Virus record (IMG/VR): IMGVR_UViG_2711768060_000001
Coordinates: 1 to 12,660 of that record
Source of the DNA: a virus
Taxonomy: Duplodnaviria > Heunggongvirae > Uroviricota > Caudoviricetes
DNA: 12,660 bases
Reading direction: 5' to 3' (one strand)
Of this stretch, positions 5,445 to 12,660 are shown one piece after another (position 1 is the first letter of the stretch; each line of letters starts with the position of its first letter). The notes beneath the pieces are model-generated. The model ran no database searches and had not been told where the DNA came from. It was given only the letters and a program-made list of their open reading frames with translations. Made by a program: the position numbers and the translations under genes.

Positions 5445-5475
5445 CTGTTGTCGTCAACAGGCAGCGTGCTATCAT
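5445..5475 (+). promoter_or_regulatory. Candidate promoter with overlapping palindrome for the parDE-like operon
   Basis: Palindrome CTGTTG-TCGT-CAACAG (5445-5460) overlapping -35 TTGTCG (5448-5453); 16-nt spacer; -10 TATCAT (5470-5475); about 35 nt upstream of the antitoxin ATG. Confidence 0.35.
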
Positions 5476-5510
5476 CGAATAGTGTTCTATCCTACTCCGT
5501 GAGGTTTACC

Positions 5511-5768
5511 ATGCGTACAACCCAACAATTCAGCATTACATTAACTAACGAGATGGCTGACATGGTGCGCGCCCGTGTGGCTTCCGGTGCCTATGCTTCA
5601 GAAAGCGAGGTCATTCGTGAAGGGCTTCGCGCACTGAATGAGCGCGATAAAGCAATCGAAGCGTGGTTAACGCATTCAGCCGCCCCCTCTCTTGATTCTA
5701 TCCGCGAAAATCCAAACAACGGACGCTCCATTTCACAGGTTCGCGCCGCGATTCGATCCGGGAAGTAA
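5511..5768 (+). CDS. parD: ParD-family (ribbon-helix-helix) antitoxin
   Basis: ATG at 5511 with GAGG 8 nt upstream (ORF track start 5448 is a non-ATG extension). 85 aa, motif YASESEVIREGLRALNERD typical of ParD antitoxins; directly upstream of a ParE-like toxin. Confidence 0.8.
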   Translation: MRTTQQFSITLTNEMADMVRARVASGAYASESEVIREGLRALNERDKAIEAWLTHSAAPSLDSIRENPNNGRSISQVRAAIRSGK

Positions 5769-5773
5769 TCTGC

Positions 5774-6073
5774 ATGACATATGAAGTCATCATTACTCCT
5801 GAGGCCGAACAACAAATAATCAACCTGCACAGATATATAACGGAGAAAGCAGGAAGCGTCATTGCTGACAATTATGCCAATGCGCTTCTTGATTATCTTG
5901 ATGGGTTTTCTACATTCCCGCATCGGGGCAATAAACGCGATGATATTCGCCAGGGGATGCGGGTAACTCATTTCCGCCACAGAACGATTATTGCTTTTGC
6001 CGTTGATGGCAGAAAAGTCTTTATTGTCGGTATCTATCATGGTGGGCAAAGTTATGAAACCGATTTCTTATAA
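5774..6073 (+). CDS. parE: ParE-family toxin
   Basis: 99 aa, 5 nt after the antitoxin stop; ParE/RelE-fold pattern (MTYEVIITPEAEQQIINLHRYI ... RKVFIVGIYHGGQ). Confidence 0.85.
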   Translation: MTYEVIITPEAEQQIINLHRYITEKAGSVIADNYANALLDYLDGFSTFPHRGNKRDDIRQGMRVTHFRHRTIIAFAVDGRKVFIVGIYHGGQSYETDFL

Positions 6074-8970: not shown

Positions 8971-9636
8971 TCAAACAAACCCAGCCGCTTTCCGGCGTTC
9001 ATATTCCTGTTTCAGCAACTCAATTGGAGTTGGCCCCGACGGGCGTTCTGGTGCAGCCAGTTGCCGCCGTACGGGCGGAACACTGAAGCCGTCACCAACA
9101 TGCTTTGCCCATTTCGCCAGTTGCCGTTCTGCAAGTCGTTTTAACTCCCCTTCGGTCATCTGGCGCTCAATCCCCTTTGAACGCATCTCGAGGCAAATGT
9201 GATACAGCACAGGCTGAGACCACGGGTATTTATCGCTTCCGTCGTATCGCCAGGACTCGTTGCGCCAGCGGCGGTACTCCTCCATCACGGCATCCACAGT
9301 CAAACCAAACGGATTTGCCCCACTTTCCGAAATCAACGCCACAAACTCTGCCAGGTCAGGAGGCCATGTTTCACCCGCCCGACAACGCTCCATGCACTGG
9401 CGGCAGACCTGCCGGATTTGCTGCTCAGTCATCGCGCCAATCTGTGCAATCCAGAGCTTCGAAGGTGCGGCCCCGTTCTTCTGAGTCCAGCGGTTCGAAT
9501 AAACCTCCCCCATGAGTTCCCACAGCTTCCACGCCGTTTCCGTCGCTGATAAATCCGTTTTCACGTTCCCACTGCTCACGTGCTGCCCGAATTTCCTGAA
9601 CTGCCCGTGATGCGGTGCCACCTGGCGTTGCTGCAT
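8971..9636 (-). CDS. Lambda-P-like replication protein (helicase loader)
   Basis: 221 aa; ATG at 9636 with AAGGGGGTGA SD. Segments such as [27 protein letters not shown] and [20 protein letters not shown] parallel recalled lambda P segments (FVAWCREE, YPWKSNAHYWLVTNL, TDAELRRKAADELVHMTARI). Overlaps the O-like ORF by 212 nt in another frame. Confidence 0.75.
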
Positions 9637-10465
9637 GGCTCACCCCCTTGCTGACTGGTTTAACCTGCGCCCTGACGTGATTTACGTGACGGGCGAATTT
9701 CTGCTCCCACTGAACCTGCGTGAAAACTTTCCCCTCCGCTGCCCAGTAGTCCCGGAAGGCGGCAAGTTCAGCAGGTGTAAATTCCGGCTCCGGCAGAGCC
9801 ACTCCCCACAGTGCAGCCCGTTGTCGGAAATCGGGCGACGGATTCCAGCCGTCGGTCATCGGAAATTTTCCGATGGGTTCGCTCAGACCTTCCAGGTAAT
9901 CAGGTTCCGCTGCCTGCAACGGCGCGCCATTCGACTCACTGGTCGGAGCGATCTCGCGCACGCGCGCGCTATGTGTGGGGTTTAATTCTTTATCTGTATC
10001 TGTATCTGTCGTGACTCGTCGTGACATGTCGTGACATATGCGTGACTCGTCGTGACATTCCTCATTCTGTTTTCGTAATTTTTCCCTCTCACGCTGCGCT
10101 CTCTTGCGCTCTGCCGGGGATTTCGCGGTTTGAGAAACGTTACCGTTGTCCTCTTTCAGTACCTGGCGTTTTTCCCATCCAGTGATTAAATCTCCATCAA
10201 GCACCCGCCCCTGCATTGCTTGCAAAATTGAATCAATTACGTCTTCCGTCACATCAAGCGCACTTGCTAAATCTTCCGTCGTGACATCAATGTGACCCCG
10301 TAGTGACACGCCGTGACATGTCGTGACATTTCGTGACGCGCTAACCAGAAGGTGGATATACACCGCCATCACTGTTGCAATCGGCTGTCCTGACACCCTT
10401 GAAATTGTTCGCCACTTAGGGTCATTTGGCATGTCATGCCATAATCTGAGCCAGGCGTTGGCCAT
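9425..10465 (-). CDS. Replication initiator (lambda-O-like role) with iteron arrays embedded in its coding sequence
   Basis: ORF track start 10471 is GTG; ATG at 10465 has AGAGGTGA SD. Positioned directly upstream of the P-like gene. Contains two arrays of GTGAC-core direct repeats and a (TD)3 linker encoded by (TATCTG)3. Confidence 0.7.
   Translation of the reverse strand: MANAWLRLWHDMPNDPKWRTISRVSGQPIATVMAVYIHLLVSASRNVTTCHGVSLRGHIDVTTEDLASALDVTEDVIDSILQAMQGRVLDGDLITGWEKRQVLKEDNGNVSQTAKSPAERKRAQREREKLRKQNEECHDESRICHDMSRRVTTDTDTDKELNPTHSARVREIAPTSESNGAPLQAAEPDYLEGLSEPIGKFPMTDGWNPSPDFRQRAALWGVALPEPEFTPAELAAFRDYWAAEGKVFTQVQWEQKFARHVNHVRAQVKPVSKGVSHAATPGGTASRAVQEIRAAREQWERENGFISDGNGVEAVGTHGGGLFEPLDSEERGRTFEALDCTDWRDD
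9991..10056. repeat. (TATCTG)x3 tandem repeat followed by iteron array A: five (T)CGTGAC repeats at 10-11 bp spacing
   Basis: TATCTG x3 at 9991-10008; GTGAC cores at 10011, 10021, 10031, 10042 and 10052. An alternating CG tract (9951-9970) lies adjacent. Confidence 0.65.
10278..10337. repeat. Iteron array B: six GTGAC-core direct repeats at 10-11 bp spacing
   Basis: GTGAC at 10281, 10292, 10303, 10313, 10323 and 10333, same orientation as array A and about 225 bp from it; inside the N-terminal coding region of the O-like gene. Confidence 0.6.
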
Positions 10466-10536
10466 ACTCACCTCTTCTGATACCGAATCTTTTTACTCAC
10501 GAGTTTCCGGAAGCGATCCGGTATGAATATTGTCAG

Positions 10537-10962
10537 TCAATGTACCGCCACAGCATTTCCTGCCGGGCCACCACGATTCATCTGATCGAACAAAGTGATC
10601 GCTGATGCAACAAACTCGTCGATATCTTTCACCAGGCGCTCCCGTCGCTCGACAAGCTCCCGGTGATATTCCGAACTGTGGCTGCGCATCCAGGCCACCA
10701 GCGGAGGTGGCATTGCCTTTTCGATCGCTGGTAACAGCGCCTGAATTTTTTCAACAGCATCAGGAGTGTCTTTATCTAGCCAACGGAAAATCTTTTGGGT
10801 GTTGAGATAAAGTGCGTTGTGCTTGCTGTCGTTATGCAGAACCGGAAACGTCATACCCAGCTCAAAATAAGCCCTGGTTATTTCAGCTGCCGGAACTTTT
10901 TCACCGTCCGGATGCGCCCAGGCATTCATCGCCATGCGGATGTGTTCATGCTTGATTTTCAT
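10537..10962 (-). CDS. ydaT: YdaT-like protein (Rac prophage family; CII-like, toxic on derepression)
   Basis: 141 aa; begins MKIKHEHI and ends ...VH like recalled Rac YdaT; its start overlaps the stop of the upstream YdaS-like gene. Confidence 0.75.
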   Translation of the reverse strand: MKIKHEHIRMAMNAWAHPDGEKVPAAEITRAYFELGMTFPVLHNDSKHNALYLNTQKIFRWLDKDTPDAVEKIQALLPAIEKAMPPPLVAWMRSHSSEYHRELVERRERLVKDIDEFVASAITLFDQMNRGGPAGNAVAVH

Positions 10963-11218
10963 GAATCAACTCCGGCGCATTTGATGTGTTAGTCTTACAT
11001 CCAACAGGTAAACCGTCGGTTGGGTTAGGATAAATATCAGGGCGAATTTCATGCGGGGTAACTTCCCACTTCATTAACTGGCATAACGGAATTACCTGCT
11101 TTGGGGGAACGCCAAAGCTAAACCATTGCCAAACGGTCTGTTGAGCGACCCCCATATAGCGACCTATTTCAGCTTGAGTGTATTTCTGCCTAATTTTTTC
11201 GCGAGTGCTATCTAGCAT
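10946..11218 (-). CDS. ydaS: YdaS-like Cro-type HTH protein
   Basis: ATG at 11218 with GAGGAGGG SD (ORF track start 11272 is an upstream extension); motif GVAQQTVWQWFSFGVPPKQV...IRPD; divergent from the repressor gene. Confidence 0.7.
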   Translation of the reverse strand: MLDSTREKIRQKYTQAEIGRYMGVAQQTVWQWFSFGVPPKQVIPLCQLMKWEVTPHEIRPDIYPNPTDGLPVGCKTNTSNAPELIHENQA

Positions 11219-11253
11219 TTTGCCCTCCTCTGAAAACGATAAACAAAGCCTAC

Positions 11254-11288
11254 AATAAAAAACTGTATGCAATCAACAGTTTTTTATT
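11254..11288. promoter_or_regulatory. Operator-like perfect palindrome AATAAAAAACTGT-N9-ACAGTTTTTTATT in the divergent promoter region
   Basis: 13-bp arms at 11254-11266 and 11276-11288 are exact reverse complements; lies between the YdaS-like and repressor genes; the same CTGT/ACAG core recurs at 12288-12324. Confidence 0.5.
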
Positions 11289-11326
11289 GTGATGCTTTTA
11301 ACAGTATTTACCTGTAAAATTGAATA

Positions 11327-11728
11327 ATGATGAACGCCCTAGAAGTATCTATGTACAGAATCAGCAAGCTTCTTCAGGAAACTGGATGGAGCCAGGCTGA
11401 ACTTGCCCGTAGAATTGGTGTGACACAACAAACTGTTCAACAATGGGTCAGCGGTAAGGCCACACCTAAAGCCTCAAGTTTGGATAAACTGGTTGAGGTT
11501 ACAGGGCATCCATTGCATTGGTTTTTATTGCCTCCAGAAGAGGGGGAGCAAATTTTCACCCCTGACACGATGAAAATTGGTCCTCGCCAACGCGAACTGC
11601 TCCAAGCTTTTAGTGCGTTTCCAGAGGAAGACCAAGAAAAAATGCTTCAAGAAATCAAAGACAAGAAAAAATCAATGGAAGAAACCATTGCCCGGTGGTT
11701 GGCGGCACAAAAAAGCCGCCGGGCGTGA
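11327..11728 (+). CDS. Prophage repressor, XRE/CI-type HTH, lacking a LexA-like S24 protease domain (RacR-like role)
   Basis: 133 aa; N-terminal HTH (SQAELARRIGVTQQTVQQWVSGKATP); too short for a C-terminal autocleavage domain; divergent from YdaS-like; no SD, with -10-like TAAAAT (11315-11320) ending 6 nt before the ATG. Confidence 0.8.
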   Translation: MMNALEVSMYRISKLLQETGWSQAELARRIGVTQQTVQQWVSGKATPKASSLDKLVEVTGHPLHWFLLPPEEGEQIFTPDTMKIGPRQRELLQAFSAFPEEDQEKMLQEIKDKKKSMEETIARWLAAQKSRRA

Positions 11729-11755
11729 CCACTGTACAAGAAGAGGAGTTATGCC

Positions 11756-11947
11756 ATGAATACAGCCCTTTCTCCGATAGTTTCAGAATTCGAAACTACC
11801 GAACAAGAAAACAGTTACAACGAATGGTTGCGCGCTAAAGTGGCGTTAAGCCTTGCAGACCCTCGCCCCGCAATTCCACATGACGAGGTAATGGCTGAAA
11901 TGGAAAATCTTATTGCTCAAATTGCTGCAACTAACAGGAGCGAGTAA
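11756..11947 (+). CDS. Putative antitoxin of a RelE/ParE-type toxin-antitoxin pair
   Basis: 63 aa; GAGGAG SD; stop overlaps the start of the downstream toxin (TAATG). Assignment mainly by genetic context. Confidence 0.65.
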   Translation: MNTALSPIVSEFETTEQENSYNEWLRAKVALSLADPRPAIPHDEVMAEMENLIAQIAATNRSE

Positions 11948-12234
11948 TGTTACCCATTTTATGGCTACCATCTGCTCGCGATGATTTGCGTCAGATCGTA
12001 ACCTATATTGCTAAGGAAAACATTCCTGCAGCACGCAGACTAAAAATACGTATTGAAACGTCTGTTTTAGCCCTCTCTGAGCATCCATATCTATATCCGC
12101 TAAGTGATCGAGTATCCGGTTTGCGGGAAATTGTGGTTCACCCTAATTATATCGTGTTGTACCGAGTAGCAACTTCAAGCATTGAAATTGCGAATATTGT
12201 GCATGCCCGTCGACAATTTCCCTTCTCTATCTGA
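11947..12234 (+). CDS. RelE/ParE-superfamily toxin
   Basis: 95 aa; MLPILWLPSARDDLRQIVTYIAKENIPAARRL...EIVVHPNYIVLYRV...IEIANIVHARR fits the RelE/ParE pattern; translationally coupled to the antitoxin. Confidence 0.8.
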   Translation: MLPILWLPSARDDLRQIVTYIAKENIPAARRLKIRIETSVLALSEHPYLYPLSDRVSGLREIVVHPNYIVLYRVATSSIEIANIVHARRQFPFSI

Positions 12235-12250
12235 GCCGAACAATTTCCAT

Positions 12251-12277
12251 ACTCCCTCACTCGAGGGAGTTTTTTTG
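12251..12277 (+). terminator. Rho-independent terminator after the toxin gene
   Basis: Stem ACTCCCTC (12251-12258) / GAGGGAGT (12263-12270), 4-nt loop, T-run 12270-12276. Confidence 0.65.
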
Positions 12278-12287
12278 CCTAAAACAA

Positions 12288-12330
12288 CAATTAAAAACTG
12301 TTGACACAAAACAGTTTTTAATTGTAGATT
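12288..12330 (+). promoter_or_regulatory. Rightward early promoter overlapped by a 15-bp-arm operator palindrome (pL-like)
   Basis: Palindrome CAATTAAAAACTGTT-gacacaa-AACAGTTTTTAATTG (12288-12324); -35 TTGACA at 12301-12306 inside it; -10 TAGATT at 12325-12330 (18-nt spacer). Confidence 0.5.
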
Positions 12331-12509
12331 GTTTTTACCAACCCACCCCGCCCCACAGAACGCAGGGCAATACTTCGAGTTACCAGGCAGTGGTCAGGGG
12401 TTAAGTAGCCAGCCCGAGGCGTAAGAACATGACGGCAGGGTTCAACTTTAATAACTATGCAGCAGGTTTTTGTTCCGCTACCCCGGCGTTAAGGGGAAAT
12501 GAGGTCAAC

Positions 12510-12660
12510 ATGGATACTATCGATCTTGGCAACAACGAATCTCTGGTGTACGGCGTGTTTCCCAACCAGGACGGCACATTCACCGCGATGACGTATACCA
12601 AAAGCAAAACGTTTAAAACCGAAAATGGTGCCCGTCGCTGGCTGGAAAGAAACTCAGGTG
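12510..12660 (+). CDS. Partial ORF (continues beyond window), first gene of the rightward early operon; hypothetical
   Basis: ATG at 12510 with GAGG 6 nt upstream; open to the window edge (MDTIDLGNNESLVYGVFPNQDGTFTAMTYTKSKTFKTENGARRWLERNSG...). Confidence 0.55.
   Translation, partial: MDTIDLGNNESLVYGVFPNQDGTFTAMTYTKSKTFKTENGARRWLERNSG

Follow-up and report, generated by a model that had tools for sequence, protein, structure and literature searches.

Comparison of the 12,660-bp stretch of DNA analysed here (the window) with related loci suggests that it holds a lambdoid prophage immunity module of the PaaR/DicA type, in which the two long palindromes are the control regions OR/PR-PRM and OL/PL, built from 434-type operators of 15 bp. 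We give this reading a probability of roughly 0.75. The 133-aa repressor encoded between the palindromes is most likely the protein that binds both sites, probably together with a YdaS-like Cro analogue. Operator binding, promoter activity, cooperativity, looping between OR and OL and the route of induction are what we infer from the sequence throughout.

Two palindromes flank a repressor and toxin-antitoxin cassette

The palindromes and the genes around them are as follows.

11252-11290: site 1 palindrome, ACAATAAAAAACTGT-ATGCAATCA-ACAGTTTTTTATTGT, 15-bp perfect arms and a 9-nt spacer
12287-12325: site 2 palindrome, ACAATTAAAAACTGT(T)-GACACAA-(A)ACAGTTTTTAATTGT, 16 paired positions, perfect 16-bp arms and a 7-nt loop
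10537..10962, minus strand: YdaT, CII analogue (Pfam YdaT_toxin)
10946..11218, minus strand: YdaS-like Cro analogue, 90 aa (Pfam YdaS_toxin, 8e-10)
11327..11728, plus strand: 133-aa CI-like repressor, 434-type N-terminal helix-turn-helix (HTH), PaaR2-like C-terminal domain
11756-11947, plus strand: PaaA antitoxin (Pfam PaaA2, 8.6e-22)
11947-12234, plus strand: ParE toxin (Pfam ParE_toxin, 2.5e-15)
12251..12278, plus strand: intrinsic terminator, 8-bp stem with 5 GC pairs and a T-run (folding z = -4.9)
12510 to window end: ydfA, downstream of PL (YdfA/DUF1391, 1.6e-28, Pfam)

The initial annotation had described two perfect palindromes with arms of 13 and 15 bp. Both exist and are slightly larger, with arms of 15 and 16 bp, and site 1 does lie between the divergent repressor and YdaS-like genes, in a gap of 108 bp. 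The CTGT-N9-ACAG core that had been ascribed to both sites was recovered in a window-wide motif search, in which AAAAACTGT-N9-ACAGTTTTT matched exactly twice in 12,660 bp, even with three mismatches allowed, against a chance expectation of 0.02 matches (200 shuffles). When one site is inverted the similarity between the two extends over 51 nt at 78% (11240-11290 versus 12287-12337), and the single base that distinguishes the OR arms from the OL arms is mirrored in both arms. Both sites are kept in all 44 of the related IMG/VR loci examined, whose repressors are 69-100% identical to that of the window.

The HTH_3, PaaA2 and ParE_toxin genes are consecutive open reading frames on the plus strand in the order regulator, antitoxin, toxin, and PaaA-ParE is predicted cargo that is co-transcribed with the repressor. 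The terminator at 12251-12278 closes this operon just before OL, 10 bp upstream of site 2. An E. coli prophage that is 96.5% identical carries dicB and an exonuclease gene after ydfA.

Each palindrome is a pair of 15-bp units

The arms of both palindromes, together with a further stretch beside site 1, fit one 15-bp motif, to which no strand is assigned. The third OR unit had been overlooked in the initial annotation.

11252..11266: OR1, ACAATAAAAAACTGT, left arm of site 1, in the spacer of leftward PR, -75 from the repressor ATG
11276..11290: OR2, ACAGTTTTTTATTGT, right arm of site 1, just upstream of the PR -35, at -51
11301..11315: OR3, ACAGTATTTACCTGT, covering the core of the repressor's own promoter, -26 from the ATG
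12287..12301: OL2, ACAATTAAAAACTGT, left arm of site 2, abutting the PL -35
12311..12325: OL1, ACAGTTTTTAATTGT, right arm of site 2, in the PL spacer

OR1 and OR2 are 24 bp apart centre to centre. The strict motif ACA[AG]N7[CT]TGT has five matches in the window against 0.77 expected, and at least five were found in 0 of 200 shuffles. All five are confined to OR (three, in the gap that separates the repressor gene from the YdaS-like cro gene) and OL (two, beyond the PaaA-ParE cassette). The fuller predicted operator consensus is ACA[A/G][T/G]-(A/T)5-[A/C][C/T]TGT, a pseudo-symmetric 15-bp sequence with half-sites ACAGT, ACAAT or ACAAG and A or T at 100 of 105 central bases. The 14-bp form ACAA-N6-TTGT is absent at the OR and OL sites of the window.

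This layout recurs in the related loci. Three OR units at -75, -51 and -26 were present in 44 of 44, with two downstream units 23-25 bp apart, and beyond these 3+2 units the motif matched just four more times in 223 kb of these loci. The unit is 15 bp long in every locus examined and the spacers between units measure 8, 9, 10 or 11 bp. Among the 19 distinct OR alleles, variation affects 1 of 45 positions in the operators and 28 of 63 elsewhere in the intergenic region (Fisher p = 3e-7); OR1 is invariant and OR3 varies at one central position only. Judged from this variation, purifying selection is acting on the operator units and not on the spacers. A scan of genome contigs returned one distant locus only, from Arsenophonus (repressor 49% identical), in which the layout is retained with one unit degenerate. 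No record with this immunity region was found in the phage collection, where the matches were limited to the flanks and to repressors with a partial-length identity of 53% or less, and the operator sequence ACAATAAAAAACTGT had 0 occurrences in the literature library searched.

Putative promoters overlap the operator units

11271..11276, minus strand: putative PR -35, TTGATT, read from the sequence, in the 9-nt spacer of site 1
11247..11252, minus strand: putative PR -10, TAGGCT, after an 18-bp spacer, overlapping the last base of OR1
11315..11320, plus strand: putative PRM -10, TAAAAT, 6 nt before the repressor ATG
12301..12330, plus strand: predicted PL (dicBp-equivalent), TTGACA-N18-TAGATT, reading into ydfA, 10/12 matches in the promoter scan

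Site 2 had been proposed to overlap the -35 hexamer of a rightward promoter, and this agrees with the TTGACA at 12301-12306, which is followed after 18 bp by TAGATT. Both hexamers (the -10 at 12325-12330) are kept in all OL alleles. The putative PR -35 occupies the position in site 1 that TTGACA holds in site 2, and homologues keep its TCAA part, with variation in the remaining spacer. Through the 51-nt inverted similarity the PR -10 is homologous to the TAGATT of PL, and a TAnnnT hexamer is kept in loci L041-L050. The PR hexamers TTGATT and TAGGCT are weak and fall below the threshold of the consensus promoter scan. All homologues keep the putative PRM -10, in the form TAAAAT or TATAAT and 6-7 nt ahead of the ATG; there is no recognisable PRM -35 and no Shine-Dalgarno sequence ahead of the repressor ATG. 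Due to the placement of this -10 only 6 nt from the start codon, the repressor mRNA is putatively leaderless or near-leaderless. For the PL leader (12337-12512), folding did not exceed that of shuffled sequences (z = +1.46).

The repressor and the Cro analogue share a 434-like recognition helix

The repressor matched HTH_3 (1.7e-13) and Phage_CI_repr in Pfam, and the same search found no Peptidase_S24 domain in its 133 residues. In a phmmer search against PDB its HTH domain matched the 434 repressor (2r63/1per) at E values of 2e-5 to 5e-5, and the recognition helix TQQTVQQW aligns with TQQSIEQL of the 434 protein. Three glutamines of the 434 repressor, Gln28, Gln29 and Gln33, recognize ACAA, and each is conserved here. 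Residues 37-133, the C-terminal 97, are 39% identical (E 7e-22) to a protein (METKEIRRL...) of locus L054 that differs in its N-terminal DNA-binding domain and was typed as PaaR2-like by the published GTTTAGTAA repeats adjoining it. Identity to phage genes annotated dicA is about 29%. More than 1000 contigs carry a repressor of identical sequence and more than 500 complete E. coli genomes have the cassette, yet the current annotation is only "helix-turn-helix domain-containing protein".

The YdaS-like protein is 42% identical to the repressor in the HTH and shares the helix QQTVxQW (QQTVWQW in the Cro analogue, QQTVQQW in the repressor). Repressor and Cro helices also change together in other immunity types, AQQSVQKW occurring with PQQVVSRW and SYLSQLMSG with SFLSQMASG. 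Loci L046 and L053, which have a different recognition helix, carry different repeats in the same architecture. Phage phi467 and an Stx phage served as a negative control. Their CI proteins (helix SAQSVQYW) have only the HTH scaffold in common with the repressor, their repeats are unrelated and no ACA-N9-TGT units were found there; they do not inform on the operator of the window. At 10952-10969 the window contains a YdaT box, TTGATTTTCATGAATCAA, with 0 mismatches to the published recognition sequence (PMC9986795). This box (TTGATT-N6-AATCAA) occurs once and lies away from the palindromes, and YdaT was rejected as their binder.

Alternative explanations for the palindromes

The initial annotation had taken CTGT-N9-ACAG as the recognition element, such that each 39-bp palindrome would be one operator at which a single repressor dimer reads this core with its A/T flanks, giving a one-operator-per-side switch. 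The perfect 15-16 bp dyads and the core common to both sites fit this, as does the near-palindromic relation of OR1 and OR2 in three diverged lineages (15/15 positions in the window, 14/15 in L042 and 13/15 in L043). We nevertheless regard it as unlikely. Nothing in the region varies more than the N9 (6 of 9 positions among the 19 OR alleles of site 1), which measures 8-11 bp in relatives. The outer ACAA/TTGT ends, which stand 39 bp apart, show the same degree of conservation as the inner ones, and in a single operator the half-sites would be oriented with ACAG reading away from the dyad, opposite to the homologous 434 repressor. OR3 furthermore stands alone at a fixed position without a CTGT-N9-ACAG partner, and L041 and L042 retain both units around TTGACA in OL pairs that are not palindromic (9-11 of 15 positions match when inverted). 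The core is thus better described as the junction of two adjacent 15-bp operators. A third unit, whose position is conserved, covers the promoter of the repressor itself and makes OR tripartite, as it is in lambda and 434. Since the palindromy of the pairs is dispensable as well, the switch is not simpler than that of lambda, contrary to what had been proposed. Only two units were seen at OL, which is therefore not tripartite. A reading in which the operators are recognized by the YdaS-like Cro alone or by the repressor alone, and not by both, has slightly less in its favour. The YdaS-like protein had no significant 434 Cro match in PDB (the best match was a Xylella prophage Cro at E 0.13), yet the QQTVxQW helix is found in both proteins, and in CP-933P the stretches protected by PaaR2 and by YdaS overlap and both proteins repress PR, PRM and PL (PMC8630535).

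It is very improbable that the palindromes act as nucleic acid structures, be it cruciforms or a hairpin downstream of parE that terminates transcription in both directions. Single-strand folding is strong (-13.4 and -14.0 kcal/mol, z about -6) and a terminator scan flags site 2 on both strands. Against this, the stems are nearly pure A/T with 3 GC pairs, a strong GC-rich terminator already stands ahead of site 2, the predicted PL start is downstream of site 2, divergent promoters flank site 1, and the OL regions of L041 and L042 lose the hairpin potential but keep two units. No Rfam family reached threshold, the sub-threshold matches being miRNA-like hairpins only. Direct control of both promoters by LexA, the cores being SOS boxes, is barely credible. 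The E. coli LexA box has CTGT and ACAG as its conserved ends and the repressor has no RecA-cleavable domain of its own, but the inner half-sites become ACAA or TTGT in relatives. The LexA box as such (CTGT-N8-ACAG) was rejected, as the sites have N9 and neither gave an N8 match with up to one mismatch.

Comparison with known immunity systems

The 15-bp units resemble the operators of phage 434. The 434 operator ACAAT-N4-ATTGT (ACAA-N6-TTGT) is 14 bp long, one central base pair shorter than the units here. Shared with 434 are the homologous HTH (E 2e-5) with its QQ...Q recognition helix, ACAA(T) or ACAG(T) half-sites at the outer ends of each unit around an A/T-rich centre, three tandem operators at OR and similar recognition helices in repressor and Cro. 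In the reference operator ACAATNNNNATTGT the outer 5+5 bp are contacted and the centre is not, with AAAA as the predicted best centre (PMC1636474). The systems differ in that 434 has three operators at OL, its repressor carries a RecA-cleavable S24 peptidase domain in place of the PaaR2-like helical C-terminal domain, and the Cro analogue found here belongs to the YdaS family.

The gene order O - ydaT - ydaS <> repressor - paaA - parE - PL is that of the PaaR2 region of CP-933P, which has operators between the divergent genes as well as at PL beyond parE, as predicted here from sequence. A leaderless repressor start, likely in the window, and the perfect YdaT box are further likenesses, along with a C-terminal domain that is probably homologous (39% identity to the PaaR2-type protein of L054). 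PaaR2 and YdaS give footprints in the intergenic region of paaR2 and ydaS, they repress a PL located beyond parE2 as well as PR and PRM, and paaR2 is leaderless (PMC8630535). The CP-933P operators are four 18-bp inverted repeats with the consensus GTTTAGTAA (Jurenas et al. 2021, PMC8630535), whereas the intergenic region here has three 15-bp ACAR-N7-YTGT units, and the DNA-binding domains differ. A distinct immunity specificity is therefore expected.

The Qin prophage of E. coli K-12 is similar in its short CI-like repressor without a cleavage site, its divergent Cro-like gene and its PL-type promoter just upstream of ydfA that leads to dicB, the counterpart of the PL predicted here. DicA represses dicBp upstream of ydfA (PMC10448788), and earlier work cited in that paper places three operators at each side. 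The recognition helix and the operators differ from those here, and here a toxin-antitoxin cassette separates the repressor from the PL-type promoter. Divergent PR and PRM with three operators and a distant OL/PL are shared with lambda. The centre-to-centre distance of OR1 and OR2 in lambda is 24 bp, equal to that observed here. Its operators are 17 bp long and unrelated in sequence, its repressor is RecA-cleavable, and its OR and OL are 2.4 kb apart as compared to 1.0 kb in the window. As the architecture matches the PaaR2/YdaS/YdaT (CP-933P) and DicA/DicC/dicBp (Qin) switches, the module reads as a tripartite lambda-like switch and not as a simpler or new kind of switch, while the immunity type itself is new.

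Proposed mechanism

One repressor had been proposed to control both outward promoters in the manner of lambda CI. The two OR/OL-type regions are supported by comparison and analogy; the CTGT-N9-ACAG core and the single-operator layout of that proposal are not. Each 15-bp operator would presumably take one repressor dimer, which we assume since we know of no precedent for a 434-type dimer on a 15-bp rather than a 14-bp site. At each outward promoter two operators would bracket the -35 hexamer, OR1 and OL1 lying in the promoter spacer with their last T shared with the -10 and OR2 and OL2 sharing theirs with the -35, so that occupied operators would exclude RNA polymerase from PR and PL. PR would drive ydaS-ydaT-O-P...Q, and PL would drive ydfA followed by dicB and the exonuclease gene. 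OR3 would overlie the weak, probably leaderless promoter of the repressor, allowing negative autoregulation, and through OR3 the YdaS-like Cro would shut the repressor off. Repressor bound at OR2, about -44 relative to the putative PRM start, may activate PRM. As the repressor-PaaA-ParE operon ends just before OL, the toxin-antitoxin pair would occupy the cargo slot between cI and OL that holds rexAB in lambda. Induction probably needs an antirepressor, since the repressor has no autocleavage domain.

The retained OR1/OR2 symmetry and the mirrored OR/OL base hint that the composite dyad may have a significance of its own. It is conceivable, if rather doubtful, that the 39-bp dyads are themselves functional, with a PaaR-type tetramer or octamer reading OR1+OR2 and OL2+OL1 as symmetric composites centred on the -35 hexamers and looping the 1-kb repressor-toxin-antitoxin cassette, and with the 434-type Gln-Gln-Gln code adapted to a 15-bp operator. 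The mirrored base difference and the symmetry kept in three lineages are the only hints of this. If true, it would show how a natural system copes with one additional central base pair, and toxin-antitoxin expression would be hard-wired into the prophage switch.

For the 3+2 layout of separate 15-bp operators, the units are ready oligonucleotides for probing a 434-like recognition helix on a 15-bp site. The predicted operator ACAR-N7-YTGT and the layout together would allow heteroimmunity to be predicted among E. coli prophages, in which this immunity type is common, and the layout would explain how PaaA-ParE is transcriptionally tied to the lysogenic state.

Organization of the immunity region

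Pfam gene assignments identify the window as part of a lambdoid E. coli prophage, namely its immunity and early region. This agrees with an E. coli prophage of 96.5% identity, in which dicB, a DUF1482 gene and an exonuclease gene come after ydfA. The features are listed below.

5511-5768, plus strand: ParD antitoxin of a second toxin-antitoxin pair
5774-6073, plus strand: ParE toxin of the second pair
9425-10471, minus strand: O-like protein with DnaT domain; further downstream on this strand, lambda P, RusA, antiterminator Q and a DNA methylase
10537-10962, minus strand: YdaT (CII analogue)
10946-11218, minus strand: YdaS-family HTH protein (Cro analogue)
11327-11728, plus strand: HTH_3/CI-type repressor, 133 aa
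11756-11947, plus strand: PaaA2-family antitoxin
11947-12234, plus strand: ParE toxin
12251-12278, plus strand: strong intrinsic terminator
12287-12325, listed on the plus-strand map: site 2
12510 to window end, plus strand: YdfA (DUF1391)

Over 500 complete E. coli genomes contain at least 80% of 10900-12660, and over 1000 contigs carry the exact repressor sequence, annotated with generic names. Two 10-bp tandem repeat arrays within the O-like replication gene, GTCGTGACTC x4.8 (10008-10056) and GTGACATGTC x3.5 (10303-10337), are probably origin iterons, as in the lambda ori. The second toxin-antitoxin pair is independent of the first and lies on the plus strand inside the minus-strand early-right operon (5445-6073). 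Ahead of it lies a perfect palindrome, CTGTTGTCGTCAACAG (5445-5460), with LexA-like spacing and a G/C-rich centre, which is probably the pair's own operator.

Fifteen-bp units as probable operators

Both palindromes that the initial annotation placed on either side of the immunity cassette were present and slightly longer than described. Site 1 (ACAATAAAAAACTGT / ATGCAATCA / ACAGTTTTTTATTGT, 11252-11290) has perfect 15-bp arms, while site 2 (ACAATTAAAAACTGT / TGACACAAA / ACAGTTTTTAATTGT, 12287-12325) has 16 paired positions, counting the first and last spacer bases. The common core AAAAACTGT-N9-ACAGTTTTT was likewise recovered, with exactly two matches in the window even at up to three mismatches (0.02 expected). 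Site 1 and inverted site 2 are 78% alike over 51 nt (11240-11290 and 12287-12337), which suggests two outward-pointing copies of one promoter-operator unit.

The repeat unit emerged from an alignment of the DNA preceding the repressor gene in IMG/VR relatives with repressor identities from 100% to 49%. The conserved elements were three 15-bp units, ACA[A/G]-N7-[C/T]TGT, and not one long palindrome. Two further units follow the toxin-antitoxin cassette.

11252: OR1, ACAATAAAAAACTGT
11276: OR2, ACAGTTTTTTATTGT
11301: OR3, ACAGTATTTACCTGT
12287: OL2, ACAATTAAAAACTGT
12311: OL1, ACAGTTTTTAATTGT

Centre-to-centre distances are 24 bp (OR1-OR2), 25 bp (OR2-OR3) and 24 bp (OL2-OL1), and OR and OL are 1035 bp apart. 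The strict motif matched these five units and nothing else in 12.66 kb (0.77 expected), a number reached in none of 200 shuffles. Each of the 44 loci whose repressor identity was 69% or more had three units before the repressor ATG, at -75, -51 and -26, and a downstream pair spaced 23-25 bp; other matches across these loci amounted to only 4 in 223 kb. The arrangement was retained in an Arsenophonus locus (repressor 49% identical), with one unit degenerate and with 8-bp and 11-bp spacers.

Each arm of the two palindromes is one unit, and the CTGT-N9-ACAG core spans the boundary between neighbouring units. That recognition is of the 15-bp unit, and not of one long palindrome per side as first proposed, is favoured by five observations. 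Unit length was always 15 bp, whereas the inter-unit spacer was 8, 9, 10 or 11 bp among relatives and, at OL, polymorphic (9/10) among near-identical alleles. In 19 distinct OR alleles, variation was confined to 1 of 45 positions within units (a central base of OR3), against 28 of 63 other intergenic positions (Fisher p = 3e-7), and within the N9 of the core 6 of 9 positions varied. OR3 stands alone. In two related loci, L041 and L042, the OL pair is non-palindromic (9-11/15 when inverted), yet a unit still lies on each side of TTGACA. Finally, the half-sites of 21 distinct units read ACAGT, ACAAT or ACAAG; positions 1-3 hardly vary, and 100 of the 105 bases at the five central positions are A/T. 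The proposed analogy to lambda OR and OL, with the repressor as binder, is upheld on comparative grounds; the simpler single-palindrome switch and its core are not.

It is unlikely that the palindromes act as a hairpin or terminator, as their stems are A/T-rich, a real terminator already lies 10 bp upstream of site 2, OL pairing is lost in relatives and no Rfam family reached threshold. A LexA box at either palindrome was ruled out by spacing. The symmetry itself may still matter: the OR1/OR2 pair is near-palindromic in three diverged lineages and the single base separating OR arms from OL arms is mirrored in both arms, so the composite dyad may have a secondary role, e.g. in symmetric tetramer binding. 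Alternatively, its symmetry may be maintained by templated repair.

Candidate binding proteins

The N-terminal domain of the repressor matched structures of the phage 434 repressor (E 2e-5), and TQQTVQQW, its recognition helix, aligned to TQQSIEQL of 434. Gln28, Gln29 and Gln33 of the 434 repressor read the ACAA half-site, and their equivalents are all conserved here. The 434 binding site (reference ACAATNNNNATTGT) is 14 bp, with the outer 5+5 bp contacted and the centre uncontacted, and an AAAA centre is the predicted best binder (PMC1636474). Judged by sequence, the units are the 434 operator with one extra central base pair, the ACAA ends taking the same outward position. Across the HTH, the YdaS-like protein (helix QQTVWQW) and the repressor share 42% identity; both probably recognise one set of operators, in the manner of CI and Cro.

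Among heteroimmune relatives, a change in the repressor helix goes with one in the Cro helix and with different repeats. Helices AQQSVQKW and PQQVVSRW accompany units like AACTTTwwAAGTGT (L046/L053 type), and SYLSQLMSG and SFLSQMASG accompany GTTTAGT repeats (PaaR2 type). With CI of phi467 and CI of an Stx phage (helix SAQSVQYW) the similarity is limited to the HTH scaffold, and ACA-N9-TGT units are absent there. The OR and OL regions of the sister type (L046-L049 and L053; repressor 65-67% identical, helix AQQSVQKW) have the same unit-TGACA-unit architecture with other units (ACACTTTwAAAGT / AACTTTwwAAGTGT), a possible natural specificity switch linked to a Gln-to-Lys change. In another E. 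coli prophage (L054, 669-1532) two tandem repressor genes lie upstream of paaA-parE, namely a PaaR2-type gene adjoining the cro-like gene and a gene for a repressor 54% identical to that of the window, which suggests recombination between immunity types.

Putative promoters and the repressor-OL interval

Promoter anatomy was inferred from sequence. The putative PL is TTGACA (12301-12306)-N18-TAGATT (12325-12330), the first T of its -35 being common to OL2 and that of its -10 to OL1. Site 1 is built alike on the minus strand, where TTGATT (11276-11271)-N18-TAGGCT (11252-11247) would be PR, ~22 nt upstream of the ydaS Shine-Dalgarno and ATG; its TCAA and TAnnnT elements are retained among relatives. 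The OL2-OL1 spacer is polymorphic in length (TGACACAAA versus TGACACAAAA; OL regions of L028, L029, L032, L036, L038 and L039), which stretches the PL spacer from 18 bp to 19 bp in otherwise near-identical prophages. A leader of 173 nt separates PL from ydfA (12337-12510; ACCCACCCCGCCCCACAGAACGCAGGGCAATACTTCGAG...); it is conserved across immunity types (L053, L054), has no Rfam match and its predicted fold is not unusual.

Every relative carries TAAAAT or TATAAT as putative -10, 6-7 nt before the repressor ATG (in the window TAAAAT, 6 nt; 11315-11330) and a Shine-Dalgarno sequence before this ATG is absent, so the repressor mRNA is probably leaderless. Lambda cI mRNA is leaderless, and paaR2 mRNA was shown to be (PMC8630535). 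RefSeq entries disagree on the repressor start (133 aa or 125 aa); the long form is favoured by an L046-type relative that lacks the internal Met. No good -35 was found for PRM. OR2 would be centred near -44 of PRM, compatible with activation by OR2-bound repressor, and OR3 sits between the notional -35 and -10.

Between repressor and OL, relatives carry PaaA-ParE, unrelated ORFs or nothing (in L042, L043 and L050 an unrelated 120-aa ORF, 123-aa and 69-aa ORFs, or nothing). In L031 and L034 an internal deletion (+400 to +610) fuses the 5' end of paaA to the 3' end of parE and leaves OL intact. The slot thus resembles that of lambda rexAB.

Relation to known immunity systems

The CP-933P immunity region has the same architecture; in that prophage both PaaR2 and YdaS gave footprints in the intergenic region, their targets of repression being PR, PRM and a PL beyond parE2, and YdaT activates a PRE-like promoter (PMC8630535). 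The repressor shares its C-terminal domain with a PaaR2-type protein (39% identity, E 7e-22) but has a different DNA-binding domain, and the operator is unlike the 18-bp GTTTAGTAA repeats published for CP-933P. A perfect YdaT box, TTGATTTTCATGAATCAA (TTGATT-N6-AATCAA, 0 mismatches; recognition sequence from PMC9986795), spans the ydaS stop and ydaT start at 10952-10969 and is a candidate PRE-like site where the CII analogue would drive repressor synthesis. The PL side has its counterpart in Qin dicBp, a promoter upstream of ydfA that is kept off by DicA, a short uncleavable repressor, until an antirepressor relieves it (PMC10448788). Like DicA, the repressor has no S24 domain and, as it is also ~33% identical to the Gifsy-1/2 repressors, antirepressor-mediated induction would be the likeliest route. 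The operator sequence did not occur in the literature searched. The window thus holds a previously uncharacterised immunity specificity with 434-like operators, of the well-known lambdoid CI/Cro kind (PaaR/DicA class).
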